From the NCBI GenBank assembly GCA_964517635.1, contig CAZFCC010000010.1, forward strand, positions 7,812 through 71,811: 64,000 nt of DNA, given 5' to 3'. The notes below the pieces were generated by a model. The model worked only from the letters and a program-made list of their open reading frames with translations, did no database searches and had not been told where the DNA came from. The position numbers were made by a program, and so were the translations under genes. The DNA comes from an uncultured Desulfovibrio sp. (GTDB taxonomy: Bacteria; Desulfobacterota; Desulfovibrionia; Desulfovibrionales; Desulfovibrionaceae). Shown piece after piece: positions 46,948 through 63,070 of the stretch; the first letter of the stretch is position 1; each line of letters starts with the position of its first letter.

Positions 46948-48891
46948 TCAAGACGCTGCGCTGTTCCCCTTTCGCGCCTGCCACCAGAGCTGAAAAACCA
47001 GCAAAGTCCAGAGGGGCTTGCGCAGGTCTGCCCTGCCCGAAACATGCTCGTCCACAAGGGCGCGCACGGCGGCAGGTTCAAAAATACCCTGCGCCTTGAG
47101 GCTGTCTGCGCTGAGCAGGTCTTCCACAAGTGGGCGCATGCGCCCGCGCAGCCATTCTGCCACGGGAATCTGAAAGCCCCGCTTGTTGCGATACAGTATT
47201 TCCTTGGGTAGCAGGTCGGCAAAGGCCCGCTTGAGCAGCCACTTGCGCTTGAAGCCGTGCAACTTGCGGTTCACAGGCAGGCGGGCGGCAAATTCGGCCA
47301 CATCCTTGTCCAAAAACGGTGCTCGCACCTCAAGGCTATGCAGCATGGAGCAGCGATCCACCTTGACCAAAATATCGTCCAGCATGAACTGGCGCGCATA
47401 CACATGAAAGGCCCGCGCCAGCGGCGCGGCCGCATTGTGGGGCCGCCAATGCTCATACTGTTGGCGCGTGGGCGCAAAGAGGCGCTCCGGCGCAAGAAAA
47501 CCCGGAGCCTGCGCCTTGAAGGGGGAAGACAAAATCTCGGCCTGCATGTCGGGGGTAAAGGCCGTCAGCATGGTTTGCACGCGCTGCCATGCCGGAGCCT
47601 GCGCCGCGCGCAGAAACGTGGCCACCGCCAGGCGCGGATTGATGTATCCGGCGGACGAAGGCAGGCGGCGGGCCAGAGGCTCCACAAGCTTGCGCCGCAG
47701 CACAAGGGGCAAGGCATTATACCACTCCGCCACCTTAAAACCGATATAATGCTCATACCCGGCCCACAATTCGTCTGCACCGTCGCCGCCCAGGGCCACG
47801 GTGACCTTTTGGCGGGTCACGCCCGAAAGCAGCCAGGTGGGCGCCACCGAAGCGTCCGCCATGGGCACATCCATTTTGCTGATAATGCCGGGCAGATTGT
47901 CGGCGCATTCCTCTGCCGAAAGCACGCGCTCGTTGTGGTCTGTGCCAAAGGCCCCGGCCACGATGCGGGCATAACGCGACTCGTCGTAGCTGGCCTCGGT
48001 AAAGCCTATGGAAAAGGTTTTTATGGGCGAGGACGACTGCCGCGCCATCAGCCCTGCCACAATGGACGAATCAATGCCGCCCGAAAGAAAAACACCCAGG
48101 GGCACATCGCTGACCATGCGACGGCGCACGGCCTGGGCCAGCAGGCCCCGCAGTTCTTCGCAAAGTTCGTCGGTGCTGCGGGAGTCGTTTTCGTCCGGCA
48201 CGGGCATATCCCAATAGCGGCCCATGCGCAGGTTACCGCCTTCGAGCATGAGCCAGTGCGCCGGGGGCAGACTCGCCACTTCATCATACACGGTCTGCGG
48301 CGTGGGCACGTATTCATAAGCCAGATAGCGCATAACGGCTTCGGGGCTCAGGGTCAGGCTCAGCCCCATGCCCTGATCGCGCAGGGTTTCAAGAGCCGTC
48401 AGCTCCGAGGCAAAATGCAGCCTGCCCTGTTGCACCGTATAAAAAAACGGTTTTTTGCCAAAGGGGTCGCGCGCGCAAAAAAGGCGCTGCTCCACGGAAT
48501 CCCACAGGGCGAAGGCAAACATGCCGTTGAAGCGGCCGAGACAATCCACACCCCACAAGCGGTAGGCCTCAAGAATGACCTCTGTGTCCGAATTGGTCTG
48601 AAAGCGCGCTCCGGCGCTGGAAAGCTCTTGCTTCAGCTCCGCAAAATTATACATCTCGCCATTATATGTGATGGAATACCGCCCATCTACACTGTGCATG
48701 GGCTGGGCGCCCGTGCCGAGATCAATAATGGAAAGCCGCCGATGCCCGAGGCACAGCGGCCCGCTCAGCCACTGACCTTGGCCGTCCGGCCCGCGGTGGG
48801 CCAGGCGGTCGGTCATGGCTTGCACCCAGTGGAGGGCCTGTGGGTCAAGGGGCGAGGCGTCCAGTTGGCAAATACCGGCTATTCCACACAT
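46948..48891 (-). CDS. asnB: Glutamine-hydrolysing asparagine synthase-like amidotransferase
   Basis: MCGIAG, HRGPDG, HRRLSIID, NGEMYN, LSGGIDSS, GGDGADE and EVRAPFLD. Confidence 0.93.
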   Translation of the reverse strand: MCGIAGICQLDASPLDPQALHWVQAMTDRLAHRGPDGQGQWLSGPLCLGHRRLSIIDLGTGAQPMHSVDGRYSITYNGEMYNFAELKQELSSAGARFQTNSDTEVILEAYRLWGVDCLGRFNGMFAFALWDSVEQRLFCARDPFGKKPFFYTVQQGRLHFASELTALETLRDQGMGLSLTLSPEAVMRYLAYEYVPTPQTVYDEVASLPPAHWLMLEGGNLRMGRYWDMPVPDENDSRSTDELCEELRGLLAQAVRRRMVSDVPLGVFLSGGIDSSIVAGLMARQSSSPIKTFSIGFTEASYDESRYARIVAGAFGTDHNERVLSAEECADNLPGIISKMDVPMADASVAPTWLLSGVTRQKVTVALGGDGADELWAGYEHYIGFKVAEWYNALPLVLRRKLVEPLARRLPSSAGYINPRLAVATFLRAAQAPAWQRVQTMLTAFTPDMQAEILSSPFKAQAPGFLAPERLFAPTRQQYEHWRPHNAAAPLARAFHVYARQFMLDDILVKVDRCSMLHSLEVRAPFLDKDVAEFAARLPVNRKLHGFKRKWLLKRAFADLLPKEILYRNKRGFQIPVAEWLRGRMRPLVEDLLSADSLKAQGIFEPAAVRALVDEHVSGRADLRKPLWTLLVFQLWWQARKGNSAAS

Positions 48892-50414
48892 GATTCTTTC
48901 CAGCACTTGTAATTATTGGTGAATATGCGGGCCAAACGATCATTGTTGGCTTCAGGATCAAACATCTGGGCTGCCAGCAGCCTGCCATTACGGGCCAGTT
49001 GCGCCGCCAAGGCCCTGTCGCCAGCAAGCTGGGCAATGGCCTCGGCCAGGGCTTTGGCATCTCCCGGGGGAACGGCCAGACCTGTCTTGCCATGGCGCAC
49101 CACCTCGGGCAGGGCGTTGACAGTGGTGCTGACCACGGGCAAGCCGTAGGCCAGCGCCTCGATAACCGTGTTGGGGATGCCGTCGCGGCGGCCCGAGGCG
49201 TGTACCACGCAGGGCGCGGCAAAAATATGGTGCTCCCCGAGCAGCCGGGGCAGTTCATTGTGCGAAATCAGGCCGGGCATGGTCACGTGGCCTTCCAGCT
49301 TGAGCTCCTTGTGCAAACGCATCAGCTCTGCCTGCATGTTGCCAAGGCCCATGGCCTTGCCGCCGCCGCCCGCCAGCGTCAGCCTGAAGTCCAGCCCCTG
49401 TTCGCGCAGAATCCCGCAGGCCCGCAGCAAAACGTCAAAACCCTTGGTAACGTCAAAGCGCCCAAGCGCCAGCAAACGCACGGGCCGGGGCATGGCCTCG
49501 GGCGCGGCAGAAGGCCGGGCTTCTTCCAGGGGCGAAACGAGGCCAGCATAGCCGCCCGAAGCATCGCTCGCAGGCACGGGCGCAGGCCCAGACATAACGG
49601 CAGCTCCAGGCCCGGAGGCTGCAACAAGCGCTGCCCCAGACGCTGTCACAGACGCTGCCACAGACGCTGTCACAGACGCTGTCACAGGCGCTGCACCAGA
49701 CGCTGCCTCCGCGGCGGCTTCGCTTTCGCCCACCAGCGACGGCAGGGTCAGGCCGTTATAAACAAGCTCCACCTTGCCCTTGGCCTGTCCCCTGTCAAAG
49801 CTTTCGATACGCCCCTTGTCGGCGGCATTATTGGCGCGCACAAGAAAGGCCGCGTCCAGTTTGTCGCCAAGATCCGGGTCAGCAGGCTCAAGGTTGTCGC
49901 CCCGCGCGCAGGTGGCAAAGGGCAGCCCGGCAAGACTGCCGGCCACCCAGGCTGCCGTGGCTGTGCCACGCGGCCAGGGGGCGTAAATCATGTCGATGCC
50001 AGCCTCTGTCAAACGACGGGCCAGGTAAACGCCAGCACAAAAGGCCCAAAGATTTTCGCCAAAAGTCTCGATGCTGCGCCAGCGGCGGAACATGGTGCGC
50101 CGGAAAAGCCTTAGCAGGCGCACGGGGCGCGTAAACATCTGCCGCAGCAGTTCCGCCAAAATGACTGGTAGCGCACGCGTGCCCATAGTTATGGTCTCGC
50201 GCGCCACGCTGCGCATTTCTGTGGAACAGTGGCGCAAATTGGGGCCGTACAGGCTGTAAACCGCAACGGGAAGGCGCTGGCGCAGGCCCTGCACCTCGCG
50301 AAATATAAAAGGCTGGGTGAAAAGAGGATACCAGAGCAGCACACAGGCCACATGGGGCAAGCCCGCAGCGAATGGCGGTGGGGTGGATTCTTCGCCTGTT
50401 CTTTTTATTGTCAT
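48879..50414 (-). CDS. GT4 (GT-B) glycosyltransferase with an internal repeat insertion
   Basis: LLWYPLFTQPFIFRE, GRF..TKG, DGIPNTVIEA and PEVV..G..G. Confidence 0.9.
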   Translation of the reverse strand: MTIKRTGEESTPPPFAAGLPHVACVLLWYPLFTQPFIFREVQGLRQRLPVAVYSLYGPNLRHCSTEMRSVARETITMGTRALPVILAELLRQMFTRPVRLLRLFRRTMFRRWRSIETFGENLWAFCAGVYLARRLTEAGIDMIYAPWPRGTATAAWVAGSLAGLPFATCARGDNLEPADPDLGDKLDAAFLVRANNAADKGRIESFDRGQAKGKVELVYNGLTLPSLVGESEAAAEAASGAAPVTASVTASVAASVTASGAALVAASGPGAAVMSGPAPVPASDASGGYAGLVSPLEEARPSAAPEAMPRPVRLLALGRFDVTKGFDVLLRACGILREQGLDFRLTLAGGGGKAMGLGNMQAELMRLHKELKLEGHVTMPGLISHNELPRLLGEHHIFAAPCVVHASGRRDGIPNTVIEALAYGLPVVSTTVNALPEVVRHGKTGLAVPPGDAKALAEAIAQLAGDRALAAQLARNGRLLAAQMFDPEANNDRLARIFTNNYKCWKESCVE

Positions 50415-50598
50415 TGCCTGCTCCTGAGCGTCTGCAAGGGGCAAATCCATAACTTTCTATGTCCGGGCATGTACCTTGTTTCAAAGACAAAATGCCCTAA
50501 GATAATGCGGGATGCAACCAGCGTAGGGCCGTGTGGATTGCGCCGAAGACCACCTGTAAAAATGGAGTGCACCATTGAAACGCGCAACACGGCAACGC

Positions 50599-51624
50599 TT
50601 ATGTGCAACAGGCCCAATCGTTGGGCCCGGCATCTGCGGCCCGGAGCAGACCGCTGCTTTCGGGAGCGGCGGGGCCCAGGGTTTCGCGCAACTGATCCAT
50701 GGTCAGGCAGCGCACGTTCCAGCGGGCCATGAGCCAGTCTGTCCAGGCCTGTATCTTGTTCATGAGCCTGTCCACAGCAGCGGCATCGGGCAGATGCGGC
50801 GCGCCGCCCGGCATCATTTCTGAAGAATGCCAGGTAAGGGACAAAACCCGGCCCCCCCGAGCCACAAACAGCCGGGTTATGGCCTGCATGGCCCATAAGG
50901 GGTGATAGACGGGTAAAAGACTCAATGCACCCCAGTTTTTGAATCCGGGACGCAGGCGCGGCGCAGCGCGGCGCAGCGCGGCGGGCAAACACGGTAAAAG
51001 CGGAGTAACGCTGAGGGGCACTTCAAAAATACGGCCTTCCGGCGTGGATACCCAATACGGATCGCGCGGCGCGTTAAAATGATCCGGCCCGGCCAGCGGG
51101 CTGACCCCACAATGCAGCGGGCGCACCGAGGCGTCTACCAGAATGCCAGCTTGAGCCAGCAGCGGCCAGAGGCTGCGGTGCAAGTCCCAGCGGCCCATGC
51201 GAAACGATGTCAGCGGCGCGCTCTGAAAATCACGCCCGGCAGCCATGAGGGTTGCGAGCTTGGCGGCCATGAGGGGAGCGGGAACCGCGGCGGCAGGAAC
51301 GCTGGCGGCATTGTCGCCAAGGGCGGCGTCGGCATGGGGCCCATCAAGGGTCAGGGGCGGCGTGTTCCAGTGGTGCAAATGCGCGCCGATTTCCGCCCCG
51401 TGGCTGTCGCGGGCATGGGCCAGAGCCTGACGGGAAGGCGCATGGGCGAGCACGCTGTGTGCGCAGAACAGCGTAGGGCGCACCCCCCGCTCGTACAGCG
51501 GGGCAAGGCGCGTGAGGCTGGCGGTATTGGCCATGGAATAGTCCCGGCGGGCGTACTGCCCGCCAAACAGCCCTTCTTCTTCCACATCCAGACTGACAGC
51601 GAGATATATATCCGGACGGCTCAT
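50599..51624 (-). CDS. Polysaccharide deacetylase-like (WalW-type) protein
   Basis: SLDVEEE, EIGAHLH.WNTPP, SFRMGRW and LTWHSSE; ATGA overlap with the upstream GT. Confidence 0.8.
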   Translation of the reverse strand: MSRPDIYLAVSLDVEEEGLFGGQYARRDYSMANTASLTRLAPLYERGVRPTLFCAHSVLAHAPSRQALAHARDSHGAEIGAHLHHWNTPPLTLDGPHADAALGDNAASVPAAAVPAPLMAAKLATLMAAGRDFQSAPLTSFRMGRWDLHRSLWPLLAQAGILVDASVRPLHCGVSPLAGPDHFNAPRDPYWVSTPEGRIFEVPLSVTPLLPCLPAALRRAAPRLRPGFKNWGALSLLPVYHPLWAMQAITRLFVARGGRVLSLTWHSSEMMPGGAPHLPDAAAVDRLMNKIQAWTDWLMARWNVRCLTMDQLRETLGPAAPESSGLLRAADAGPNDWACCT

Positions 51625-52979
51625 GCGCCCTCTTCCGCCGTGCCGCTTGCGGCAAAATTCCGGCCCGAAGCGCTGTGGTCGCTGGGGTGCGCCTCGTCGG
51701 CGCGGGCACATTCCGTTACGTACAAGTCGTAGACGGCCTTAATGTTGCGCTCGGGATCAAAAAGTTTTTCCACCAGGGCGCGCCCCGCCTGGGCCATGCC
51801 CAGGGTGGCCTCCCGGTCAGCAAGCATGCGGCGCACGGCATGGGCCAGCGCGCGCGGATCGCGCTGCTGCACCAGCAGACCGGTTTCGCCGTCAATGATC
51901 ACCTCGGAAATGCCGCACACGTCGGTAGCAATAACCGGCATGCAGTGCGAAAGGGCTTCTATGATCACGTTGGGGATGCCGTCGCGATCGCCATTGGTGT
52001 GAACAACGCTGGGCATGATAAGCATGTCATGATTCAGCATAAAGTCGCAAATTTTATCGTGGGGGATGAAGCCCGGCATGTCCACAACGCCGGCAAGGCC
52101 CAGCTCATCGCGCATTTTTGTCAGCTTGCGCCGCCAGTTGCCGTCTCCCACAAGGGTCAGGGTCACCGGCACGTTTTCACGCCGCAGCCGAGCCATGGCT
52201 GTGAGCAGTTCGGGAAAACCCTTGGTGCGGGCAAAGCGTCCCACAGCCAGCAGGCGATAGGGCGCCCGCATAGGCATGGCGCACTGACCACCGGGCCGAA
52301 ACGTGAGGCTGTTATAGATGGCATGCACCTTGTCTTTGCCCTCAGGCGGACAAAAACTGCGCAGCCATTGCACGTTGGTCTGGTTATTGGTGCGGATAAA
52401 GAGCGCATCGCGAGATTTTTCTCGCAACAGGCCGTCTTCGGGATAAATATCTCCGGCTCGGCCCGTAAAGGCAAAAGGAATGCCAGACATGCGCGAAGCA
52501 ACCCAGGCGGCAGTGGCTGGCCCGTTGGCCCAGGCCGCATGGATCAGCTGCACGCCGTCCTGACGACACTGCTCGGCCAGCAGAAAACCCGCCAGAAAAC
52601 ACCAGACATTTTCGCCTTCGGCCTCAAGATTGCGCATGCGCCGGAAAAAGCCCTCGCGCATGAGCCGCCAAACCTTGCCCGGCTGCTGGCGCAAAGCGCG
52701 CCAAAAGGCGGCCAGAATCCTGCCCGCAGCTTTAAAGCCCATGCGCCGCACTTGCCCGGCGTAGGCGCGCATCTCTTCGCTGCAACCCTTGAGGTTTTCG
52801 CCATACATGCTGTAGGCATACACCGGAAGGCCCCGTTGCATGAGCTGCACAATCTCACGAAATATAAAAGTCTCTGAAGACAAGGGGAACCATAGAAGGA
52901 CGTAGGCGATAACCGGGGGCACTGCCCGCCGGTCGCGCTCTGCTCCCGCTTTTGTGGCGTGGCCACTAATAAAAGACAT
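51621..52979 (-). CDS. GT4 glycosyltransferase (paralog of 48879-50414)
   Basis: LLWFPLSSETFIFRE, GRFARTKG and DGIPNVIIEA. Confidence 0.9.
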   Translation of the reverse strand: MSFISGHATKAGAERDRRAVPPVIAYVLLWFPLSSETFIFREIVQLMQRGLPVYAYSMYGENLKGCSEEMRAYAGQVRRMGFKAAGRILAAFWRALRQQPGKVWRLMREGFFRRMRNLEAEGENVWCFLAGFLLAEQCRQDGVQLIHAAWANGPATAAWVASRMSGIPFAFTGRAGDIYPEDGLLREKSRDALFIRTNNQTNVQWLRSFCPPEGKDKVHAIYNSLTFRPGGQCAMPMRAPYRLLAVGRFARTKGFPELLTAMARLRRENVPVTLTLVGDGNWRRKLTKMRDELGLAGVVDMPGFIPHDKICDFMLNHDMLIMPSVVHTNGDRDGIPNVIIEALSHCMPVIATDVCGISEVIIDGETGLLVQQRDPRALAHAVRRMLADREATLGMAQAGRALVEKLFDPERNIKAVYDLYVTECARADEAHPSDHSASGRNFAASGTAEEGA

Positions 52980-53033: not shown

Positions 53034-54356
53034 TTATTCGCCCAGGGATTCTTCGGCGTGTTCGCGTTTGTATTTTTCAACAATTGCTTGCGCCTTGGGA
53101 ATCTCTTCTTTCACGGCGTCAAGCGCCGTGCGGATATGCTCTTCCGTATGTGCGGCTGAAAGGAAGAAACGCAGCCTGTCCGTGCCTTCCTTGACTGCAG
53201 GGAAGGTGATGGGCATGACGTAGATGCCGCGTTTGAACAGGGCGTTGGACAAAAAGCCCGCCACCATGGGGTCGCCCACCATAACAGGCACAATGGCATA
53301 GCCCTGGGCCGCGCCCGTATCAAGGCCGATGCTCGAAGCGTATTCCACAAAAAACTTGGAAATGCTCTGCAGCTTGTGCACCCGTTGCGGTTCACGCAGC
53401 ATGATGTCCAGGGCCTTTTGGCAGGCCACGGCAATAACCGGGGGCATGCCCACGCTGAACACAAAGCCCGGCGAACCATATTTGAGAAATTCTATCAGCT
53501 CATGCCGACCGGCGATAAAACCGCCGCAACCGCACATGGACTTGGAGAGCGTGCTCATCCACATGTCCACTTCTGTGGGGTCGATGCCGAAATGCTCGTG
53601 AGCGCCGCGCCCGGTTGCGCCGAGCACGCCCAGCGAGTGGGCCTCGTCAACCAACAACATGCAGTCATACTGCTTTTTCAGCTGAATGATGCGGGGCAGA
53701 TCGGGGATATTGCCGTCCATGCTGAACAGGCCTTCGGTAACGATAATGGCCCGTTTGTGGTCGGCGCGCTTGGCCTTGAGCACTTCTTCAAGAGCGTCGC
53801 AATCGTTGTGATTATACGAGTAGCGCGCTGCATGCGAGAGGCGGGCGCCCTGAACCAACGAGTTGTGGGCCAGGCCGTCATGAAAAATGGCGTCGCGGTG
53901 GCCGAGCAAAAAGCCCAGTGTGGATACGTTGGTGGCGTGGCCGCTGACGTACACGATACTGTCTTCAACACCATACAGGTCGGCAAAGGCGCGCTCCAGC
54001 GCACGGTGGGGCGGGCGCTCGCCGCCCACAAGGCGGCTGGCTCCGGCAGAAGTTCCGTACACGGCGGCAGCTTCGGCGACGACCTCGGTTATTTCCGGAT
54101 GGGCGTTGATATCCAGATAATCGTAGGTGGAAAAGTTCAGATATTCTTTGCCTTCAATAAACGTGGTGGCCTTGGCCGCGCGCTCGTGGCAAAGAAAAAG
54201 AGGATTTTCCATCCCCATCTTGGCTCCCATCTCCACAAGCCGGTCGAAGGCGAGCTTGGAACGCATGCGACTAAAGCCGCTGGCGGAGCTTTCAGTGGCG
54301 GCAGCGGTTGTTGATGCCGCCTCTTTTCCGGCCTGACAGGAATGGTCTTTCTTCAT
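53034..54356 (-). CDS. PLP-dependent alpha-oxoamine synthase (WcbT/RkpG-like)
   Basis: NFSTYDYL, GTSAGASRLVGGERP, VSGHATNV, DEAHSLG and TLSK. Confidence 0.88.
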   Translation of the reverse strand: MKKDHSCQAGKEAASTTAAATESSASGFSRMRSKLAFDRLVEMGAKMGMENPLFLCHERAAKATTFIEGKEYLNFSTYDYLDINAHPEITEVVAEAAAVYGTSAGASRLVGGERPPHRALERAFADLYGVEDSIVYVSGHATNVSTLGFLLGHRDAIFHDGLAHNSLVQGARLSHAARYSYNHNDCDALEEVLKAKRADHKRAIIVTEGLFSMDGNIPDLPRIIQLKKQYDCMLLVDEAHSLGVLGATGRGAHEHFGIDPTEVDMWMSTLSKSMCGCGGFIAGRHELIEFLKYGSPGFVFSVGMPPVIAVACQKALDIMLREPQRVHKLQSISKFFVEYASSIGLDTGAAQGYAIVPVMVGDPMVAGFLSNALFKRGIYVMPITFPAVKEGTDRLRFFLSAAHTEEHIRTALDAVKEEIPKAQAIVEKYKREHAEESLGE

Positions 54357-54688: not shown

Positions 54689-57600
54689 ATGCAGCAAGAC
54701 CCTGCTCCTCAATACGGCGACTGTCGTATAACACAAAGCACCGCTCTTCCCGGCGGCCTGCTGGCCGTGCCTCTTCCGAGCATCGCGTTTTCATGCCCCG
54801 CTCCGGAAGGCTCCAACCTCGACCAGCAAGATTCCTCTGCGGTCGACATCAGTGCCCAGGATATGGTTCAACTGTGTTTCAAGTGGCTTACACACATTGA
54901 AACTCCCGGGCCTGTCCTGCTCTGGCTTTGCTGGCACGAGCAAAACACCCCCGCCCCGCTGGCCCTGCCTCTGGTGCTGGCTCTTCAGGGGCTGCAAAAT
55001 CTCTGGCGCATCGGGCCCATCCGCTTCCAGTGCGAACCCTTTATGCCCGGCCAGATGTTGGAGGCTGAAAAACTCCTGCGCGACATGCCGCAGCACGGCG
55101 AAAGCACAGTAGAAGCCCCCAACGGCAAGCCCACAAAAACGCCGCTGCGCTCCCCTTCGGGCGCCGATCAGATTATGCGGCCCGTGACAGGACGCGTGCC
55201 GACCATTCTTTTGCTGAACTTTACGAGCGATGAAGAAAGCAGGCTGCATTGCCATCCGCTGTTGCTGCGCTTGCCGGCGCTCACTCCGCCCTGCTGCGAC
55301 ACGCTCATGTGCCGCAAAAGCCCGCCCCGCATCGCTCCGGAGGAAAAAACGCCTGCGCCTGCGCCGCACACGAGCCAACCGCAGCCCACGGTGAACGCCA
55401 TGGCCATGCCTGCGCCGCACACGAGCCAGCCGCAGCCCACGGTGAACGCCATGGCCATGCCTGCGCCCGGCGCTTGCGGCGTCTCTGGTGTTCCCGGCAT
55501 CCCCGGTATCCCCGGCATCCCCGGCGCCTGTGCAGATCCCCACACTCCCGACGCATACGCAGCACCTGGAGAGATTTTTCTTGACGGTGTGCGCTATACG
55601 GAACTTCCTCAGGACGGCCTACTCTGGCGCATAGGCGCCGTCAACCCCCTATGGCGTCAGGAATTGCTCGTGCTGCCGCACAATCCCGACGCTGCCGCCC
55701 TCGCGGCCCTGGAGCCGCGCGGCCTGTGGCTGGCCCCTGTTCAAACGCCGCCGCCCCTGGCCGTCATGTGCTGCGGGCTGGGTTCGGTCTGGCCGGGCAT
55801 GGGCCGCGAACTGTACGACAGTTTCCCCGTTGCGCGCGCGGCCATGGATCGCATCGCCGCCGTGGCTGACTGGGACGTGCTTGGCCTTATGGACGAAAAG
55901 GATGTGGAAAAAATCAGCCTTACCCGCTGGCAGTCGCCCTACCTTTTCATGCTCGAATTTGCGCAGTGGAGCGTGCTTTCTTCTCTGGGCCTGCGGCCTT
56001 CGCTCTTTTGTGGCCACAGCTTGGGCGAGATTATCGCCCTCTGCCTCAGCGGCATCGTTGAGCCCGAGGCGGCCTGGTACATGCTCGACACCCGCGCTGT
56101 GCACATGGCCGAACTGGAAGCCGCAGCCACGCGCGAAACAGGCATGATGGCCGTCCACGCCAACATTGAAGTCGTTGAAGAAATCCGCGCAACCTGGCCG
56201 TCGCTCTACGTATCCAACTATAATACGCCCCAACAGTTCATCCTCAGCGGCCCGCGCGAGGCCCTGCAAGAAGCCCGCAAAAGCCTGCGCAAGCGGCGTA
56301 TACCGGCCATTGTGCTCAACGTGAGCCTGGCTTTTCACCATCCGAGCATGCGCGTGTTGCGCGATCTTTCGCAGCGCCGCCTCAATGCCCTGGAAATGCA
56401 CGCGCCGAACATCCCCATACTGAGCTGTATCACCACCGACTTTTACCCCAACGACCAGCCCTCCATTTGCCAGCACATGACTGATCTGGATGAAAACTCC
56501 GTGCGCTGGACAGAATGCGTGCATGCCATGTGGAACAGAGACGGCATCCGCCACTTTGTCGAACTGGGGCCGCAGGATACCATTTGCGGGCTCACTCGTG
56601 ACAACGAATCCCGGGCCCTGTGCCTGCCAGCCGGGCGCAAGGGCAAAGAAGTCGAGGGCATGCGCCAGACATGCGCCCGCCTCTACTCCCTGGGGCATCT
56701 GCGCGATGATTCCATCCGCGCGCGCGTTACCTCTATGCGTGAGGGGCGTGATGCCGCGGCTGCCGCACGCGCGCCGCTGCCCCACTGCGGCCTTATACCC
56801 GTCGGAACCCCAGACGCCGCCTGCCCCGTAGAAAGCGTCGCCCCAATGGTGCCCGACGCCCAAACACCGACGCCACTTGAAACACAGACCAACGCCCAAA
56901 CACAGGCCGATGCCCCTTCAAGCACGACCGACGCGGCCCCCACAGCGGCCAACGATTTTTCCGCCGACGCAGCTCTGCGCGTGGTTATGGACGTGCTGTC
57001 CCGCGCCAGCGGGCGGGCAGTGGAAGACCTGCGCCCTGAAATGGATCTGCGCTATGACCTGGCCCTGCGCTCCAGCCGTTTCCCCCTCATCATTCAGGAA
57101 GTGGAAAAAGCGCTGGATATTATCGTCAACTTTGAAGATCTGCTTAAAGTTTCGACCATAGGCGATCTGGCGCGCATTCTGGGCGGCAATCCCCTTGCCA
57201 GCAACGAACAGGAACGCACGGCGGCAGGCGCAAGCTCTTTCAGCCGGGCGGCCAGCGCCTGCGCCCCTTTATGCCGATTCGCGCCACTGCTGCGGCCCTG
57301 GCCGGAAGAAGACGCTCCGGCGCAAGCGAGCACTCCGGCGCAAACGAGCACCCCGGCTGAAGCCAGCATTCCGGCACAAGCCAGTGCAATCCTTGCAAAA
57401 AGTGCCCCAGCCCAGTTACCGCTGGATCCCTGTGGCCAAGGGCTGCCCATACACATGGGCGATGTGCTGGCCCTGCTCTTTTTCGAGCCAGAGCTTTTAC
57501 CTGCGCTCATGAGCGGACTCGCGCCGCTGGGCTGCGTGTTGGGCGTGCCCAAAGATCAGCTTGAAGCCTGCGCGCCCCTGGCCAAGGCCGGTTCGCGCCT

Positions 57601-59170
57601 TGTGCCCCTTGACCTGCGCATACGCACGCCCCAAAGCGCCACAGAGGCGCTGGCCCTTGCCGACGAAACCCGTATGGCCCTTGATGCCTTAGCCCGCAAC
57701 GAAGGCCGCATAGACGGACTTGTCTTTACGCCCGCCGTCATCGCAAAGGCCAACGGAACCGCATGCGGCCCGGCCGCTTCCGATGCCGAATTTGCCGCCG
57801 CCCGCATGCCCGAGGTGCTGGATGCCGCCATGCGGGCCGCCCTGAGCCATGGCCTGCGCCATGCCTGCCTGTGCAGCCTCATGCTGCCTGCGCAGGAAAA
57901 TATGTATTGCGACGGCCCGCTGGAAAAACACCTTGAAGCCCTTGGCCAAGAGTCGGGCATAGCCGTGCGTGCCGTGCGCCTGCTTGAACCCACCCTGCGC
58001 GCCGGGCTCAACGAATGGGGCGACCTGCTGGCCCGCGAACTGCTGCTTGGCACGGCAGAGCATGTGTTCTGGGCACGCCACAACACCCTGCCGACCATGC
58101 ACACACCAGGCCACCGGGCGGATCATCCCGGCGCAAGCGCGGGACATTCCCCCACAGGCTCGGGCCTGGCCCTGATCGAGCGGCCCCGCCGCTACCCCCT
58201 GGTTTTTCCCGATCCGCGCCCGCCTTACCGCGGCACGGCCACGCTGTTTCAAGGCGGCTGCCATTACTCGCGCTTTGCAGACGCCGACCTGGCCCAGCAC
58301 GGCGGCCAGCCGGGCAATGGCCTTGGCGAAAACACGCCATGGCTGCCGGCCGGCCGCGCCCTTGCGGCCCTGCTGGAGGCATCCAGCCTGTGGTTGCCCT
58401 GGCTTACGGTCACCGGTTTTTCAGATCTGCGCTTTCATGAGCCGCCGCTGTTGCCGCCCGGCCTCACACGCGAATGCCGCCTGACCATGGAGGCCGAACC
58501 CTGGCTCATGCAGGACGGCGTTATGACCCGCATGTGTCGGGGCGAACTGGCTGTGCGCGAAGTCACGCCCAACGGCAGACACTTGGGCCAGTATACCCCC
58601 GTGGCCGGGGGCATGACCCTGCTGGCTGCGAACAATGGGCAGGTTCCCCCCTTGTGGCCGCACGAAGCCCATATTTTTGAAAAAAATGGTGGTTTCGCTG
58701 TTCCCGGTCTGGACACCGAACTTTTTTATGAGGCTCTTGGCCTTGGCGCCCCCTGGCGCATGTTGCGAGATTTTTTGATCTTACCAGAGCACAAATACGC
58801 GGCGCGCCTGAATCCACAGCATACGGCCATTGCCCCCGAGGGCAATAAAGGCTATGCTGATGTTCTGAATGTGGTGGAGGGAATGGTGCAGGCTGCCTGG
58901 CTGGCCATAGCCCAGGGAGCTGAAAATACCAACGCGGACATAGCGGCAGTGGCCCAGGCGGTGCGCTGCTGGCGGTTGCACGCGGCTGGTTTTATCCGAT
59001 TCGGGGCCGAAAGGGGCAAAGGGCCGTGGCATGTGGTGCTGCGCCGTTCCTGGTCGGATTCCCGTCTGTTACGCTTTGACGGCCAGGCCGTTGACGAGCG
59101 TGGCCGTATTTTTCTTACCCTTCATCATCTGGAATTTGACCGGCGGGACCACAAACCCACCGCGCTTTAG
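54689..59170 (+). CDS. PKS/PUFA-synthase-like multidomain protein: AT - ACP-like - degenerate KR - DH; no KS
   Basis: CCGLGSVWPGMG, GHSLGE and SLAFHH (AT); DLALRSS (ACP-like); RIDGLVF; LAQH..P and EGMVQAAW (DH-like); start uncertain. Confidence 0.8.
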   Translation: MQQDPAPQYGDCRITQSTALPGGLLAVPLPSIAFSCPAPEGSNLDQQDSSAVDISAQDMVQLCFKWLTHIETPGPVLLWLCWHEQNTPAPLALPLVLALQGLQNLWRIGPIRFQCEPFMPGQMLEAEKLLRDMPQHGESTVEAPNGKPTKTPLRSPSGADQIMRPVTGRVPTILLLNFTSDEESRLHCHPLLLRLPALTPPCCDTLMCRKSPPRIAPEEKTPAPAPHTSQPQPTVNAMAMPAPHTSQPQPTVNAMAMPAPGACGVSGVPGIPGIPGIPGACADPHTPDAYAAPGEIFLDGVRYTELPQDGLLWRIGAVNPLWRQELLVLPHNPDAAALAALEPRGLWLAPVQTPPPLAVMCCGLGSVWPGMGRELYDSFPVARAAMDRIAAVADWDVLGLMDEKDVEKISLTRWQSPYLFMLEFAQWSVLSSLGLRPSLFCGHSLGEIIALCLSGIVEPEAAWYMLDTRAVHMAELEAAATRETGMMAVHANIEVVEEIRATWPSLYVSNYNTPQQFILSGPREALQEARKSLRKRRIPAIVLNVSLAFHHPSMRVLRDLSQRRLNALEMHAPNIPILSCITTDFYPNDQPSICQHMTDLDENSVRWTECVHAMWNRDGIRHFVELGPQDTICGLTRDNESRALCLPAGRKGKEVEGMRQTCARLYSLGHLRDDSIRARVTSMREGRDAAAAARAPLPHCGLIPVGTPDAACPVESVAPMVPDAQTPTPLETQTNAQTQADAPSSTTDAAPTAANDFSADAALRVVMDVLSRASGRAVEDLRPEMDLRYDLALRSSRFPLIIQEVEKALDIIVNFEDLLKVSTIGDLARILGGNPLASNEQERTAAGASSFSRAASACAPLCRFAPLLRPWPEEDAPAQASTPAQTSTPAEASIPAQASAILAKSAPAQLPLDPCGQGLPIHMGDVLALLFFEPELLPALMSGLAPLGCVLGVPKDQLEACAPLAKAGSRLVPLDLRIRTPQSATEALALADETRMALDALARNEGRIDGLVFTPAVIAKANGTACGPAASDAEFAAARMPEVLDAAMRAALSHGLRHACLCSLMLPAQENMYCDGPLEKHLEALGQESGIAVRAVRLLEPTLRAGLNEWGDLLARELLLGTAEHVFWARHNTLPTMHTPGHRADHPGASAGHSPTGSGLALIERPRRYPLVFPDPRPPYRGTATLFQGGCHYSRFADADLAQHGGQPGNGLGENTPWLPAGRALAALLEASSLWLPWLTVTGFSDLRFHEPPLLPPGLTRECRLTMEAEPWLMQDGVMTRMCRGELAVREVTPNGRHLGQYTPVAGGMTLLAANNGQVPPLWPHEAHIFEKNGGFAVPGLDTELFYEALGLGAPWRMLRDFLILPEHKYAARLNPQHTAIAPEGNKGYADVLNVVEGMVQAAWLAIAQGAENTNADIAAVAQAVRCWRLHAAGFIRFGAERGKGPWHVVLRRSWSDSRLLRFDGQAVDERGRIFLTLHHLEFDRRDHKPTAL

Positions 59171-59240: not shown

Positions 59241-60707
59241 ATGCCACATAAAGCACGCACTTTTCTTCCAGCACGAACCTGCCTTTCGCTGCTGCTCGTT
59301 CTGACCTTTCTTTTTTCAGCCTGCGCCTCCAACAAGGCGGGGCTCAAATCGCCAGAACTACCCGCCAGACACTGGCTGGAAGAGGCCCCCGGCGTGCCGG
59401 TGGAAAACAAGGGCAAGCTTGAAGCCGCTGTTCCCAATCTTTATGATCCCTCCAAGGTCTTCACTTTTGAAGACTGCGTTTTTCTTACCATCCAGCAGTC
59501 GCCGCTCTTGGTCAACAGCGCAGTAGACCTGGAGATCAAGCGCGTTGCCCTTACCAACGCCGTGTGGAAATACCTGCCCGAACCGCGCATGACCATGCAG
59601 GTCAGCAACAACCTCACGCGGCTTAATATGGACCACAAGGACACCCCCGGCGATTACGGGCGCACAAAACTCAGCGTGGGCTTTTACGCGGCCTTTCCCA
59701 ATCCGGTGGCCACCTATTTTGAACATCAGGTGCAAAAGGCCATGGTCAACCTGGCCATCTCAACCCACCGCAAGGCCGTGGGCGAAGCCATCTACAAGAT
59801 CGCTCAGGCCTATCTACAACTCCAGGCGCAGAAAAGAATCGTCAAAGCCCAGAAAGATATACTGCCCATCGGCAAAGAACTGATTTCCTACTGGCAGCAG
59901 GTGGAGGCCGTTGACGGCCGCCAAGGGGTTTCTCTCAATCTGGCCATGCAGCACCAGCGGGAGCTTGAGCTCATGCTGGAGCAGACCAAGATGAAAGAAA
60001 CCATGCAGCTCACCCAGCTTAAAATTCTGGCGGGTGTGGATCCCCAGCAGCGCCTGGATGTAGACGCCGCCAGCGCCGAAGAGCTTCTGCGCAGCTTCAA
60101 TGGGCGCAAGCTCAAGTGGGACGAGCGCTGGACTACCACCGAAGACGACTTGTTGCTGCGCGGCCAGATCAAGCTGGGCGACTATAACATCATGGTTGCC
60201 TGGGCGCAGTACATCCCCGACATGAGCATTGCCGTCAACAACAATCCGCCGTCCGGTCAGTACCAGCCCGCCAGCGGCAGCGAAGACACCTTTTTGCATC
60301 TGAACTTCAGCTTCCCCCTGCTGGACTGGGGACGCCGTTATCGCGGTGTGCAAACCGCCCGCATGCAAAAGGCGCAGGCTTTTCACGAAATGGCCCGCAA
60401 GCGCACCGACTATTCCAACCGGTGGCTGCAAGCCGAACAAAATGTGGCCCTGGCCGAAACCGAACTCAAGCTGGCGCGCACGCGCTTTGATACGGCGGCC
60501 ATGCAGTTCAAAGAAGCCCACATTTCTTTCAACGAAGGCATAGCCGAACTGCCCGCCGTGGCCGACAGGCAGGAAGCTATGGTGCAGGCCCAGGTGGCCC
60601 TTATCCGCGCCGAGCTGACCTGTGAACTGGCCCAGCTTGAATGGATGTATCTTTCCACGGCGCTTCAGGAACATTTCCTCGGCCTACCCGCCAAAGAGGT
60701 GCTGTAA
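59241..60707 (+). CDS. TolC/OMF-family outer membrane lipoprotein
   Basis: Lipobox FSAC; helical repeats; LNFSFPLLDWG motif. Confidence 0.8.
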   Translation: MPHKARTFLPARTCLSLLLVLTFLFSACASNKAGLKSPELPARHWLEEAPGVPVENKGKLEAAVPNLYDPSKVFTFEDCVFLTIQQSPLLVNSAVDLEIKRVALTNAVWKYLPEPRMTMQVSNNLTRLNMDHKDTPGDYGRTKLSVGFYAAFPNPVATYFEHQVQKAMVNLAISTHRKAVGEAIYKIAQAYLQLQAQKRIVKAQKDILPIGKELISYWQQVEAVDGRQGVSLNLAMQHQRELELMLEQTKMKETMQLTQLKILAGVDPQQRLDVDAASAEELLRSFNGRKLKWDERWTTTEDDLLLRGQIKLGDYNIMVAWAQYIPDMSIAVNNNPPSGQYQPASGSEDTFLHLNFSFPLLDWGRRYRGVQTARMQKAQAFHEMARKRTDYSNRWLQAEQNVALAETELKLARTRFDTAAMQFKEAHISFNEGIAELPAVADRQEAMVQAQVALIRAELTCELAQLEWMYLSTALQEHFLGLPAKEVL

Positions 60708-61651
60708 TGCGAGCCCTTGCCCGTCCATGCTCCCCCAGCGCACGTGGTCTGCTTTTGACGCTGGCCCTGCTGTGCAGCTTGGCTTTTGCCGTTGCCGCCA
60801 CTGCGGCCGAAGGCGGCAAAAGCAGTGTAACCATTCTCACCGGCAAAGTGGTGACCACGGTGACGCGCGCCATCCCCATGCCCTTTAACGGGGTGGTGGA
60901 CGACGTGCTTGTCAAACCAGGCGAAGCAGTTGAAGAAAACGCCCCCCTCATGCGCTACCACCTGCACGAAGACGCCGAGCGCACCTTGCAACGTGAAGTC
61001 ATGCAAGGCCCCGGCACAGAAAGCCTTAAAAGCCAGGTGCTTGACCTTGAGCGCAGGCTGGCCGAAACCATCGCTCAGCGCAACAAGGCGCGCCAGCTTG
61101 CCGCCTCCGGTCTTGGCTCCCGCCAGGCCTCGGGGCGCCTTGAAGAAGACGTGACCTCCTTGCAGCGTCGCATCGAACTCACCAATATTACGATCAAAAA
61201 AGCTGAAAATAGCTTTGCCATTCGCCTGAAAGAGCTGAGCAGCTACTTTGGTCAGGAAATCAAGGAAGGCGAACTTTTGCCTGAAACCCTCACCCTGACC
61301 TCCCCCATCAAGGGCTACGTGCTCTCGCTTGACGCCACTCTCAACCCCGGCACCCTGCTGCAAGCAGGGAGCGTGCCCGTCAGAGTGGGGCAGCTTGACC
61401 CTGTACTGATTCAGGTGCCTGTGTACGAAGCCGAAATCAGCGCCATCTCGGAAGGGGACAAGGTCGCTGTGGAAATTCCCTCGCTCGGCAACAAGGTTTT
61501 TCCCGGCAAAGTAAACGAAATCGCCTGGGTTTCCAGCGACATGAGCGTATCGAATCCGTCGTATTACACGGTAGAGATCACTGTGCCCAACCCTGATCTG
61601 GAACTCAAGCCCGGCTTCAAGGCCGTTGTGCGTTTCGGGGGCGGCAGGTAA
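60707..61651 (+). CDS. Membrane-fusion (HlyD/RND periplasmic adaptor) protein
   Basis: Lipoyl halves GVVDDVLVKPGE and LTSPIKGYV, coiled coil, LKPGF; TAATG overlap with TolC. Confidence 0.85.
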   Translation: MRALARPCSPSARGLLLTLALLCSLAFAVAATAAEGGKSSVTILTGKVVTTVTRAIPMPFNGVVDDVLVKPGEAVEENAPLMRYHLHEDAERTLQREVMQGPGTESLKSQVLDLERRLAETIAQRNKARQLAASGLGSRQASGRLEEDVTSLQRRIELTNITIKKAENSFAIRLKELSSYFGQEIKEGELLPETLTLTSPIKGYVLSLDATLNPGTLLQAGSVPVRVGQLDPVLIQVPVYEAEISAISEGDKVAVEIPSLGNKVFPGKVNEIAWVSSDMSVSNPSYYTVEITVPNPDLELKPGFKAVVRFGGGR

Positions 61652-61660
61652 AGCCCAGGC

Positions 61661-63070
61661 ATGAAGCTCAAGAGCATACCCCGCAGGCTCGGTTACATTC
61701 TGGGCGCGCAATGGACGCGCGACCTGGCGTGGACGGCCTTTACCATTTTGCTGGCCCGCCGCAGCCCAGACATTATGGGCCAGATCGTCTTGGCCCTCAC
61801 CTTTGGCTATTTGGTAAAAACCATTGCCGATGTGGGGCTCAACGATTTCCTGCTGTCCACCTTTGCCCGCCGTGAAGGCCGCCCTCGGGCGCTGCTTGGC
61901 GAGGTCACATGGCTCAAAATTGTGGTGCTGGTGCTGGCTTTGGTCACCACATGGCTCGTCACCGGCTGGCAAGACTACAGCCCGGAACTACGCCTCATTG
62001 TGCTCTGTATCGCTGCGGGCCTCGGCCTTGACGGCGTAAGCGATTCGTTTTTTGCCCTGTGTCAGGCCCGTGGGCGGCAAGATGTCGAAATGCGCATCCG
62101 CGTTCCGTCGGCTCTCATCGGCATAGGCTTTGGCATTGCTTGCGTGATAATGGGCGCACCGCCCATTATCATTGCCCTGTATAAACCCATCGAATCCGTC
62201 CTCTGCATCATTTTCGCGCTGGTGGCGCTAGGGCGCAACCCGCTGGCCGGTGTCGGCAAATCGGGCATGCTCGACCTGGCGCGCCAGATGAAACACGGCC
62301 TTATTTTTACCTGCATGGCTGCCTGCGCCATGTTCTACAACAAGATCAACGTTATTTTTCTCAAGCAATACGGCGGCAATGCCGACGTGGGCGGCTACGG
62401 CGTTGCCTGGGAAACCATCGAGGGCCTGTCGGTGCTGGTGTCCAGCGCCCTCTTGGGCAAAGTCATATTTCCGCTGCTGGCCAGACACTGGCAACAAGAC
62501 AGGGCAGCCTTCAGCCAGTTGGCGGGGCAGACAGCCCGAACCCTGTGGGCGGCGGCCCTGCCCATCATTTTTCTGATCTGTGTGGAAAGCGACCGCTTTT
62601 TACCCTTTATTTATGGGCATAATTACGAAAGTGCCGTTCGGGCCCAGCAACTGCTTACCCCCTGCCTGGCCACTGCCTTTCTGCATAACCTGGCAGCCTA
62701 CGCCATGATAGGCATGCGCCGCCACCGCCTGTTGCTGGCCTTTTATGTAAGCGGGCTTGTGCTCAACATTATCTGCTGCTTTACGCTCATTCCGGGCATG
62801 CCGCTGGAAGGCGCGGCCCTGTCTTTGACCATCACCAAGGTGTGGGTTGCCCTGCTGACCGTGGGCTTTTTCCAATGGGCCGCCCGCCCCATGAGCGCAG
62901 GACAATGGCTGCTCATGCTGGTGACCATTATGGTGAGCCTGGCCCTGTGGCAGATCACTGGCAAGGTAGCTCCGCGCGAAGTGGCCGAGCTTGTGGGGCT
63001 TGTTCCCCTGCTTGCGCTTTTCTGGCGCTGGCGCCCGCCGCCGCCCTTTGAAGCAAAGACCACCCGATAA
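61661..63070 (+). CDS. MOP-superfamily (Wzx-like) flippase
   Basis: About 12-14 TMs; ADVGLN, DVGGYGVA and LEGAALS patterns. Confidence 0.8.
   Translation: MKLKSIPRRLGYILGAQWTRDLAWTAFTILLARRSPDIMGQIVLALTFGYLVKTIADVGLNDFLLSTFARREGRPRALLGEVTWLKIVVLVLALVTTWLVTGWQDYSPELRLIVLCIAAGLGLDGVSDSFFALCQARGRQDVEMRIRVPSALIGIGFGIACVIMGAPPIIIALYKPIESVLCIIFALVALGRNPLAGVGKSGMLDLARQMKHGLIFTCMAACAMFYNKINVIFLKQYGGNADVGGYGVAWETIEGLSVLVSSALLGKVIFPLLARHWQQDRAAFSQLAGQTARTLWAAALPIIFLICVESDRFLPFIYGHNYESAVRAQQLLTPCLATAFLHNLAAYAMIGMRRHRLLLAFYVSGLVLNIICCFTLIPGMPLEGAALSLTITKVWVALLTVGFFQWAARPMSAGQWLLMLVTIMVSLALWQITGKVAPREVAELVGLVPLLALFWRWRPPPPFEAKTTR

Follow-up and report, generated by a model that had tools for sequence, protein, structure and literature searches.

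A polyketide synthase-derived protein without a ketosynthase in Desulfovibrio: a probable dedicated acyl carrier for an alpha-oxoamine synthase pathway

The DNA analysed here (the window) is a stretch of 64,000 nucleotides from an uncultured Desulfovibrio sp. (assembly GCA_964517635.1, contig CAZFCC010000010.1, positions 7,812 to 71,811 of the forward strand), and at 54689..59170 it carries a gene for a protein of 1493 residues that resembles a polyketide synthase (PKS) and lacks a ketosynthase (KS). The protein is probably a functional loader and carrier dedicated to the pathway of an alpha-oxoamine synthase (AONS), whose gene lies divergently beside it. A first-pass annotation of the window had offered two readings, a trans-acting loader for the oxoamine synthase that relies on a KS or fatty acid synthase (FAS) encoded elsewhere, or a partly decayed scaffold. 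The first gains support from the constraint on the acyltransferase (AT) and acyl carrier protein (ACP) domains, from the co-occurrence of a phosphopantetheinyl transferase (PPTase), from the conserved AONS operon and from a genome whose only condensing enzymes are FabF and FabH. The second was right in that the KS is gone and the ketoreductase (KR) is catalytically dead, but the folded domains are under purifying selection and no relative carries a frameshift.

The protein runs in the order N-terminal domain, linker, remnant of a KS-AT linker, AT, ACP, dead KR and dehydratase (DH), and its parts are as follows.

54689..59170, plus strand: whole gene of the KS-less, PKS-derived protein, an open reading frame of 1493 residues
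54689..55288, plus strand: lineage-specific N-terminal alpha/beta domain (about residues 1-200), from an AlphaFold (AF2) model, Foldseek, hhalign and alignments
55289..55570, plus strand: disordered Pro/Ala-rich linker (residues 201-294), from AF2 and repeat analysis
55571..55753, plus strand: remnant of the KS-AT linker domain (residues 295-355), from alignments
55754..56608, plus strand: AT domain, malonyl-type (Ser444, Arg469, His550, Q415, xAFH), from Pfam and FabD structures
56969..57193, plus strand: ACP domain, with predicted phosphopantetheine site Ser795 (codon 57071-57073) in DLRYDLALRSSRFP, from a PP-binding match
57404..58093, plus strand: dead KR (residues 906-1135), a Rossmann-like fold without NADPH loop or catalytic Tyr, AF2 pLDDT above 90
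58184..59167, plus strand: PKS-type DH double hotdog (residues 1166-1493) with a His1204/Glu1397 dyad, from Foldseek and profile comparison

Pfam matches only AT and PP-binding in the 1493 residues, NCBIfam adds just sub-threshold matches to FabD and to a PKS acyltransferase, and the family is currently annotated as 'acyltransferase domain-containing protein' and nothing more. Neither Pfam nor NCBIfam finds a KS domain (PF00109/PF02801) in the protein, and a tblastn search with three ketosynthases together with a motif scan found none in any frame of the window, in agreement with the first-pass annotation. Set against the definition of a type I PKS or FAS elongation module, the protein has an AT with its Ser-His dyad and no KS.

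The AT domain matches PF00698 (residues 361-628, E 8e-34), and FabD enzymes are its best matches in the PDB (E 3.5e-30 against FabD structures). The GHSLG (442-446) and AFH (548-550) motifs on which a malonyl type had been claimed were located in the translation, and with them stand an Arg of the FabD R117 type at position 469 and LAFH at 547-550, that is, xAFH and not YASH. Ser444, His550, Arg469, Gln415 and xAFH are invariant in all 30 aligned relatives. By motif, then, the domain is predicted to be a malonyl transferase. It has the FabD fold and the FabD catalytic residues (Ser444/His550/Arg469/Gln415), but differs from FabD in lying within a protein of 1493 residues, in scoring below the TIGR00128 cut-off (140.6 bits against 260.9) and in the position of FabD Gln11, which is Leu in 25 of the 30 family members.

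The carrier is less orthodox. Residues 765-830 match PP-binding (PF00550) at 21.9 bits, just above the gathering cut-off of 20.8, and at 27.9 bits in the genome scan. As had been noticed at first reading, the ACP-like motif is DLALRSS (790-796); when it is aligned by eye with the AcpP of the same genome (EDLGADSLD), Ser795 occupies the place of the modified Ser and Arg794 that of the canonical Asp. Thus the canonical D-S-L/I is replaced by R-S-S, and in place of an acidic helix II there is SSRFPLIIQEVEK. The carrier motif DLRYDLALRSSRFP, including Ser795 and RSSRFP, is invariant in the aligned relatives. A homologue from another genus, with an intact KS (G067, described below), bears the same carrier motif, DLRHDLAIRSSRFP; the RSS motif is therefore older than the loss of the KS and is a trait of working synthases rather than a sign of decay.

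Whether this carrier is served by a modifying enzyme can be asked of the genome. It encodes only two PP-binding carrier domains, AcpP and that of the window protein, yet besides AcpS it has a second PPTase, of the Sfp type and with a WxxKEAxxK motif. Among 121 sampled Desulfovibrionaceae genomes the C-terminal domain of the family occurs in 10 (6 of 72 genera), and five of the six genomes with an Sfp-type PPTase are among these 10 (Fisher p = 7e-6). This co-occurrence is the best available support, of an indirect kind, for phosphopantetheinylation of the predicted site Ser795. The reading frame of the Sfp-type enzyme (G000:C13:16193-17554; L003 1288-2649, minus strand) spans 453 residues, with a basic, Pro-rich N-terminal extension of about 150 residues, while its orthologues have 243-315 residues, and the true start may be internal.

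Selection acts most strongly on these same two domains. By the Nei-Gojobori method, applied domain by domain to three orthologues, dN/dS is lowest in the ACP (0.06-0.14) and next lowest in the AT (0.08-0.16); it is 0.07-0.25 in the KS-AT linker remnant, about 0.2 in the DH, 0.18-0.38 in the dead KR and 0.33-0.43 in the N-terminal domain. The folded domains as a whole lie at 0.06-0.4 and the inter-domain linkers at 0.4-1.0, with 0.4-0.6 for the linker at 201-294. The reading frame is intact in more than 100 relatives, and the frameshifted, neutrally drifting orthologues that the earlier annotation had named as grounds for refuting its reading were not seen among them. Neutral decay is thereby excluded, both by dN/dS in the folded domains and by the absence of frameshifted relatives. 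What decay there is, is limited to the KS, which is lost, and to the active site of the KR, which is dead.

The genes around the PKS-like gene form two groups, a divergent one that begins with the AONS and a codirectional one for export.

53034..54356, minus strand: AONS, 440 residues from ATG 54356, divergent from the PKS-like gene
51621..52979, minus strand: GT4 glycosyltransferase (family models)
50599..51624, minus strand: conserved unknown-family protein, possibly polysaccharide-deacetylase-like, likely start ATG 51624 (weak DUF3473, synteny)
48879..50450, minus strand: second GT4 glycosyltransferase (family models)
46948..48906, minus strand: AsnB-type glutamine amidotransferase resembling the type associated with exopolysaccharide (EPS) loci and XrtA (family models)
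59241..60707, plus strand: TolC-like outer-membrane factor, directly 3' of the PKS-like gene
60707..61651, plus strand: membrane-fusion (HlyD-type) adaptor, start inferred from orthologues of 314 residues (family models)
61661..63070, plus strand: Wzx/MOP-type flippase (family models)

The operon of AONS, GT4, unknown-family protein, GT4 and AsnB adjoins the PKS-like gene in most loci, and where it does not, an AONS of 74-84% identity is found elsewhere in nine of the 10 genomes checked. The three export genes follow the PKS-like gene in every locus whose examined stretch reaches downstream. Two homologues that still bear a KS also have an AONS partner: in G067 all of the AONS-GT4-unknown-GT4-AsnB operon is found on another contig, its AONS sharing 75% identity with the window enzyme, and in G035 an oxoamine synthase is encoded 5.5 kb away from the PKS. 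The partnership therefore predates the loss of the KS. Since the KS-bearing G067 has the same operon, the AONS probably already acted on a built chain while the KS was still present. The possibility that the AONS came in as a replacement for the KS was rejected on the same two genomes.

A housekeeping identity for the AONS, as a BioF with a pimeloyl-ACP product, was also rejected. The cluster enzyme scores 346.5 bits against TIGR00858, below the cut-off of 426.45, and has no biotin genes around it. A true BioF (448.6 bits, over the cut-off) adjoins BioW on another contig, and the genome also has BioB elsewhere. The gene for BioW, a 6-carboxyhexanoate-CoA ligase, immediately precedes that of the true BioF (G000:C2; L095 1522-3404), and the genome thus appears to make its biotin precursor from free pimelate and not by way of FAS-like bio genes such as those reported for some other Desulfovibrio. 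A third AONS paralogue, 53-58% identical to the cluster enzyme, is present in G067:C46 (L099 8348-9481), G122, G124 and G125. The mechanical reading frame of the cluster AONS opens at TTG 54431; read from ATG 54356 the protein has 440 residues, like every orthologue, and this codon is the likely start.

In the window (59241-63070), as in L006 (2154-6978), the TolC-like and membrane-fusion genes are operonic with the Wzx/MOP flippase and with no ABC, RND or MFS pump, and in the KS-bearing G067 an LPG_synthase_TM-type membrane protein is inserted between adaptor and flippase. The deacetylase-like neighbour of 370 residues gave no sequence match in the PDB, and its one link to a known family is the weak DUF3473 match.

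The assembly (2.76 Mb, 99.97% complete) was searched for a stand-alone KS of the sort that the first-pass annotation had envisaged, and it yielded one PF00109 ketosynthase, FabF, encoded beside acpP, one FabH and no other KS. As the protein itself has no KS and these are the sole condensing enzymes in the genome, FabF and FabH acting in trans are the proposed partners for chain extension.

The origin of the protein can be read from its relatives. The protein has more than 260 homologues among the sequences searched, every one of them in a Desulfovibrio-type genome; most have about 1150 residues and begin near the position of residue 295. Named carriers are D. falkowii (75% identity, with the N-terminal domain), D. 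desulfuricans and D. piger ATCC 29098, and the family is also present in many metagenome-assembled genomes (MAGs) from gut, rumen and termite. The half that contains the dead KR and the DH matches 107 clusters among 1.84 billion representative proteins, and nearly all the full-length ones have 980-1280 residues. Contigs with a Desulfovibrio-type gene and export operon also turned up in bins labelled Bulleidia sp. and Odoribacter splanchnicus (L084, L086), where binning contamination is the most likely explanation.

Relatives in other genera retain what the window protein has lost. The G067 homologue (1718 residues) is organised KS-AT-ACP-KR-DH, its KS having an intact Cys-His-His and its KR being intact, and over linker, AT and ACP it shares 46% identity with the window protein. 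The G035 homologue, of 2431 residues, adds a fused PfaD/FabK-like enoyl reductase (ER) to give ER-KS-AT-ACP-KR-DH, the one KS-bearing relative in which this fusion is present. The G047 homologue has no KS and an intact KR (AT-ACP-KR-DH). In a tree of the shared region the two KS-bearing proteins are basal, followed by the KS-less proteins of other genera and then by a Desulfovibrio crown in which the window protein is sister to that of D. falkowii; rooting was by midpoint alone, and support for some inner branches is weak. Together these comparisons suggest that the window protein descends from an iterative type I PKS of the PfaA kind, in which the KS disappeared first and the KR chemistry afterwards. 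The series from ER-KS-AT-ACP-KR-DH through KS-AT-ACP-KR-DH and AT-ACP-KR-DH to AT-ACP-deadKR-DH makes it testable how a megasynthase sheds its condensing domain while its pathway survives.

The C-terminal half was modelled (residues 881-1493, AlphaFold on 50 family members; pLDDT 87.4, pTM 0.88) as a Rossmann-like alpha/beta domain followed by a double hotdog. The earlier call of a KR-like region proved sound, since residues 910-1135 align with the intact KR of a KS-bearing relative, as did the statement that this region has no GxxGxG: there is no GxGxxG anywhere in the protein, and the sole G..G.G, at 1206, lies inside a DH loop. Compared with the intact KR of L006, the GGAGGIV loop has become FFEPELL and the YSAAN catalytic stretch is lost. 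PF08659, the Pfam model of the PKS KR, gives no match, and a Gly-rich loop is absent from every crown-group member.

The DH-like end is a genuine PKS double hotdog. Its model resembles the DH domains of CurJ, CurF, RzxB and MlnB (Foldseek E about 1e-13, target TM 0.7-0.77), and a profile of the region finds the CurJ DH in the PDB (E 4.5e-5), although Pfam PS-DH gives no match. In the alignment of family profiles His1204 falls on the catalytic His of CurJ and Glu1397-x3-Gln1401 on its Asp-x3-Gln, which bears out the observation that Glu stands at the usual Asp position. The features expected of a PKS DH, a double hotdog with catalytic His and Asp or Glu, are thus present, with a spacing from His to Pro that is longer than canonical. 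Across the family the His is kept in 41 of 50 members and the acid in 43. Six charged residues of the dead-KR/DH half, D1112, R1261, E1262, R1297, R1462 and D1464 (about 58022-59080), are invariant in all 50, and the C-terminal half may have a conserved job other than dehydration.

The N-terminal region had been described as unrecognised over some 290 residues. For residues 1-294 this stands, in the sense that they are lineage-specific, whereas residues 295-355 are a conserved piece of KS-AT linker. These align with the post-KS linker of a KS-bearing relative and of KS-AT didomain structures (8xju 466-855) and are conserved family-wide; they therefore mark the site of KS loss. The N-terminal domain proper is restricted to a D. 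falkowii/MES5-type clade, and a second clade bears a different extension. An AF2 model of the first 294 residues has a pLDDT of 64.5 (core about 80) and no significant structural neighbour, the best Foldseek E being 0.18. A relic of the KS within these residues, which would have overturned the KS-less description, was rejected on this result and on an hhalign probability of 0.3% against a KS profile; scattered Foldseek matches of the region to thiolase folds, at E about 1, were not counted as evidence. A conserved Cys-rich motif, LP..TPPCCD.L.CRK, closes the N-terminal domain (residues 195-212; window 54689-55324).

The 51-bp duplication noticed earlier is a tandem, in-frame repeat in the linker at 201-294 (55357-55467, 2.2 copies, 98% match), where a 9-bp repeat is also found (55493-55525, GIPGIPGIP). 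A further in-frame repeat, of 18 bp (57315-57381, 3.7 copies), lies in the linker between ACP and dead KR and encodes AQASTPAQTSTPAEASIPAQAS. Taken together, the three repeats indicate that the inter-domain linkers evolve by slippage.

How such a protein might work can be set out as a chain of steps. The AT would move malonyl from malonyl-CoA to the phosphopantetheine arm at the predicted site Ser795, the arm having been supplied by the Sfp-type PPTase. Housekeeping FabF or FabH, acting in trans, would condense a FAS-derived acyl group onto the malonyl-ACP to leave a 3-oxoacyl chain on the dedicated carrier, and processing of the chain by FabG in trans and by the DH in cis is possible. The dedicated AONS would then accept the ACP thioester and condense it with an amino acid to give an amino-ketone, sphingoid-like block. 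The two GT4 enzymes, the deacetylase-like protein and the AsnB amidotransferase would decorate this block, and the Wzx flippase, membrane-fusion protein and TolC-like channel would export the product. The entire chain, from malonyl loading through FabF/FabH extension and AONS use to an exported glycoconjugate, has in our view a chance of being right that falls a little short of even.

Several observations weigh against this chain. AcpP has a far more acidic helix II than the window protein's ACP (SSRFPLIIQEVEK), and recognition of the carrier by FabF, FabH or FabG is therefore doubtful. The AONS scores 346 bits against the BioF model and 318 against KBL, compared with 289 for serine palmitoyltransferase (SPT), a pattern that would fit an enzyme acting on a short or dicarboxylic acyl group, malonyl itself for instance. 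Nine of 50 family members have no DH His and seven no acid, and thus dehydration is not obligatory family-wide. In the literature searched, no Desulfovibrio lipid of the kind proposed was found reported. Nor did that search find a description of the protein family, or of a locus with a PKS-like gene and an AONS from Desulfovibrio.

Some of the same observations suit the main rival scheme, in which the AONS would use the malonyl group directly (or acetyl, after decarboxylation) to form a 4-amino-3-oxo acid or aminoketone head group that is amidated, glycosylated and exported, a non-lipid product made with no contribution from FAS. The malonyl-type AT with its invariant Arg469, the lack of a spare KS in the genome, a carrier helix that argues against FAS II partners and an AONS that scores best against BioF and KBL models all accord with it. 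So does the AsnB, which could amidate a free carboxylate and is always linked, and so do the resemblances of the partner genes to EPS loci (an XrtA-type amidotransferase, a stp2-like GT4 and the weak DUF3473). But the KS-bearing relative with the same operon and a 75%-identical AONS suggests that the substrate is an extended chain, and the scheme gives no role to a DH kept with intact dyad in about 80% of members. We regard it as unlikely, though still to be taken seriously.

The DH finds a role if the AT has been repurposed as a transacylase. It would take completed FAS chains, such as 3-hydroxyacyl groups, off AcpP or CoA and pass them to the ACP; there the DH would dehydrate them, and the AONS would use the enoyl or acyl thioester. 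Retention of the dyad in most KS-less members fits this, as does the order of loss, KS then KR, if FAS II intermediates took over both jobs. It is difficult to reconcile with the invariance of all the malonyl-binding residues of the AT, and with the 46% identity of this AT to that of the KS-bearing relative, which must load an extender unit; this explanation is accordingly quite unlikely.

Still less probable is a scaffold without catalysis: the protein would serve the AONS or the export machinery as a platform for assembly or regulation, and the chemistry of its AT and ACP would go unused. The PKS-like gene does always open the export operon, and the C-terminal residues invariant in 50 of 50 members are not the canonical catalytic residues of a KR or DH; but the AT Ser and His and the ACP Ser are invariant, these two domains are the most constrained, and an Sfp-type PPTase co-occurs with the family. 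A decaying relic in neutral drift, for which a lost KS, a dead KR and fast-evolving, repeat-prone linkers might speak, is scarcely credible in view of the more than 100 intact reading frames, dN/dS of 0.06-0.4 in the folded domains and strict synteny.

The reading as a dedicated loader and carrier can be compared with several known systems. Among described kinds of protein the nearest are the PfaA-type subunits of polyunsaturated fatty acid (PUFA) and 'secondary lipid' synthases, iterative type I FAS/PKS proteins with the order KS-MAT-ACPn-KR-DH (Shulse & Allen 2011, PMC3098273). The window protein keeps their AT-ACP-KR-DH order, with the carrier ahead of the reductive domains, and the remnant of the KS-AT linker; its KS-bearing relatives have the full KS-AT-ACP-KR-DH, and for them PfaA is the second-best full-length NCBIfam model. 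It differs from PfaA in having no KS, a dead KR, a single ACP, RSS for DSL and no PfaB, PfaC or PfaD partners, and at 104 bits against a TIGR02813 cut-off of 1010 it falls well outside that family. Its partners are instead an AONS, glycosyltransferases and an exporter made up of outer-membrane factor, membrane-fusion protein and MOP flippase.

In gene content there is a likeness to WcbR/WcbT of the Burkholderia capsule and RkpA/RkpG of the Sinorhizobium K-antigen, which combine a type I PKS and an AONS-type acyltransferase in surface-polysaccharide clusters (PMC3908369). There, as here, a single PKS-type protein and an AONS homologue stand with glycosyltransferases and envelope export genes, a likeness by gene content only, and the presumed role is to provide the lipid or acyl part of a surface glycoconjugate. 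The WcbR and RkpA systems export via Kps-type ABC systems. WcbR and RkpA differ from the window protein in having an intact KS with DPQQR and HGTGT motifs (PMC3908369).

A dedicated carrier for an enzyme of the AONS class has a precedent in AcpR, which with an acyl-ACP synthetase serves a bacterial serine palmitoyltransferase (PMC9386255). Like the proposed function of the window protein, AcpR is a specialised carrier, distinct from AcpP, that feeds an acyl thioester to an alpha-oxoamine synthase, but it is a free-standing canonical ACP charged by an ATP-dependent synthetase, whereas the window carrier forms one protein with a malonyl-type AT, a dead KR and a DH. KS-less logic of a related kind, AT-ACP or ACP-AONS, in which a carrier-bound short acyl group passes to the next enzyme that forms a C-C bond, is found in the AT-ACP loading didomains of modular PKSs and in SxtA of saxitoxin synthesis (MT-GNAT-ACP-AONS). 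The loading ATs usually lack the malonyl-binding Arg and stand at the head of a multi-module synthase; in SxtA the AONS is fused in cis, whereas here it is a separate gene.

The family and its eight partner genes are conserved in Desulfovibrio that colonise human and animal guts, and the locus thus signals an uncharacterised glycoconjugate, in the envelope or secreted, of a genus relevant to health. The carrier, with Arg for the canonical Asp before the modified Ser, is of interest for recognition by PPTases and by partner proteins. A bolder proposal, which we hold to be unlikely, is that Desulfovibrio living in hosts, D. piger, D. desulfuricans and D. falkowii among them, produce and export an amino-lipid glycoconjugate that is new to science, in which the AONS would form a sphingoid-like base from the KS-less carrier, FAS would be tapped via malonyl-ACP, and the cis DH would give an oxygen-independent 2-enoyl (delta-4-type) unsaturation. 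If true, this would be a route to a sphingolipid-like envelope lipid with no relation to the established Spt/CerS/CerR pathway, and an example of a PKS that shed its KS and came to depend on FAS II. The locus offers an envelope pathway of gut Desulfovibrio that lends itself to experiment, and with it a clear case of stepwise domain loss in a PKS.

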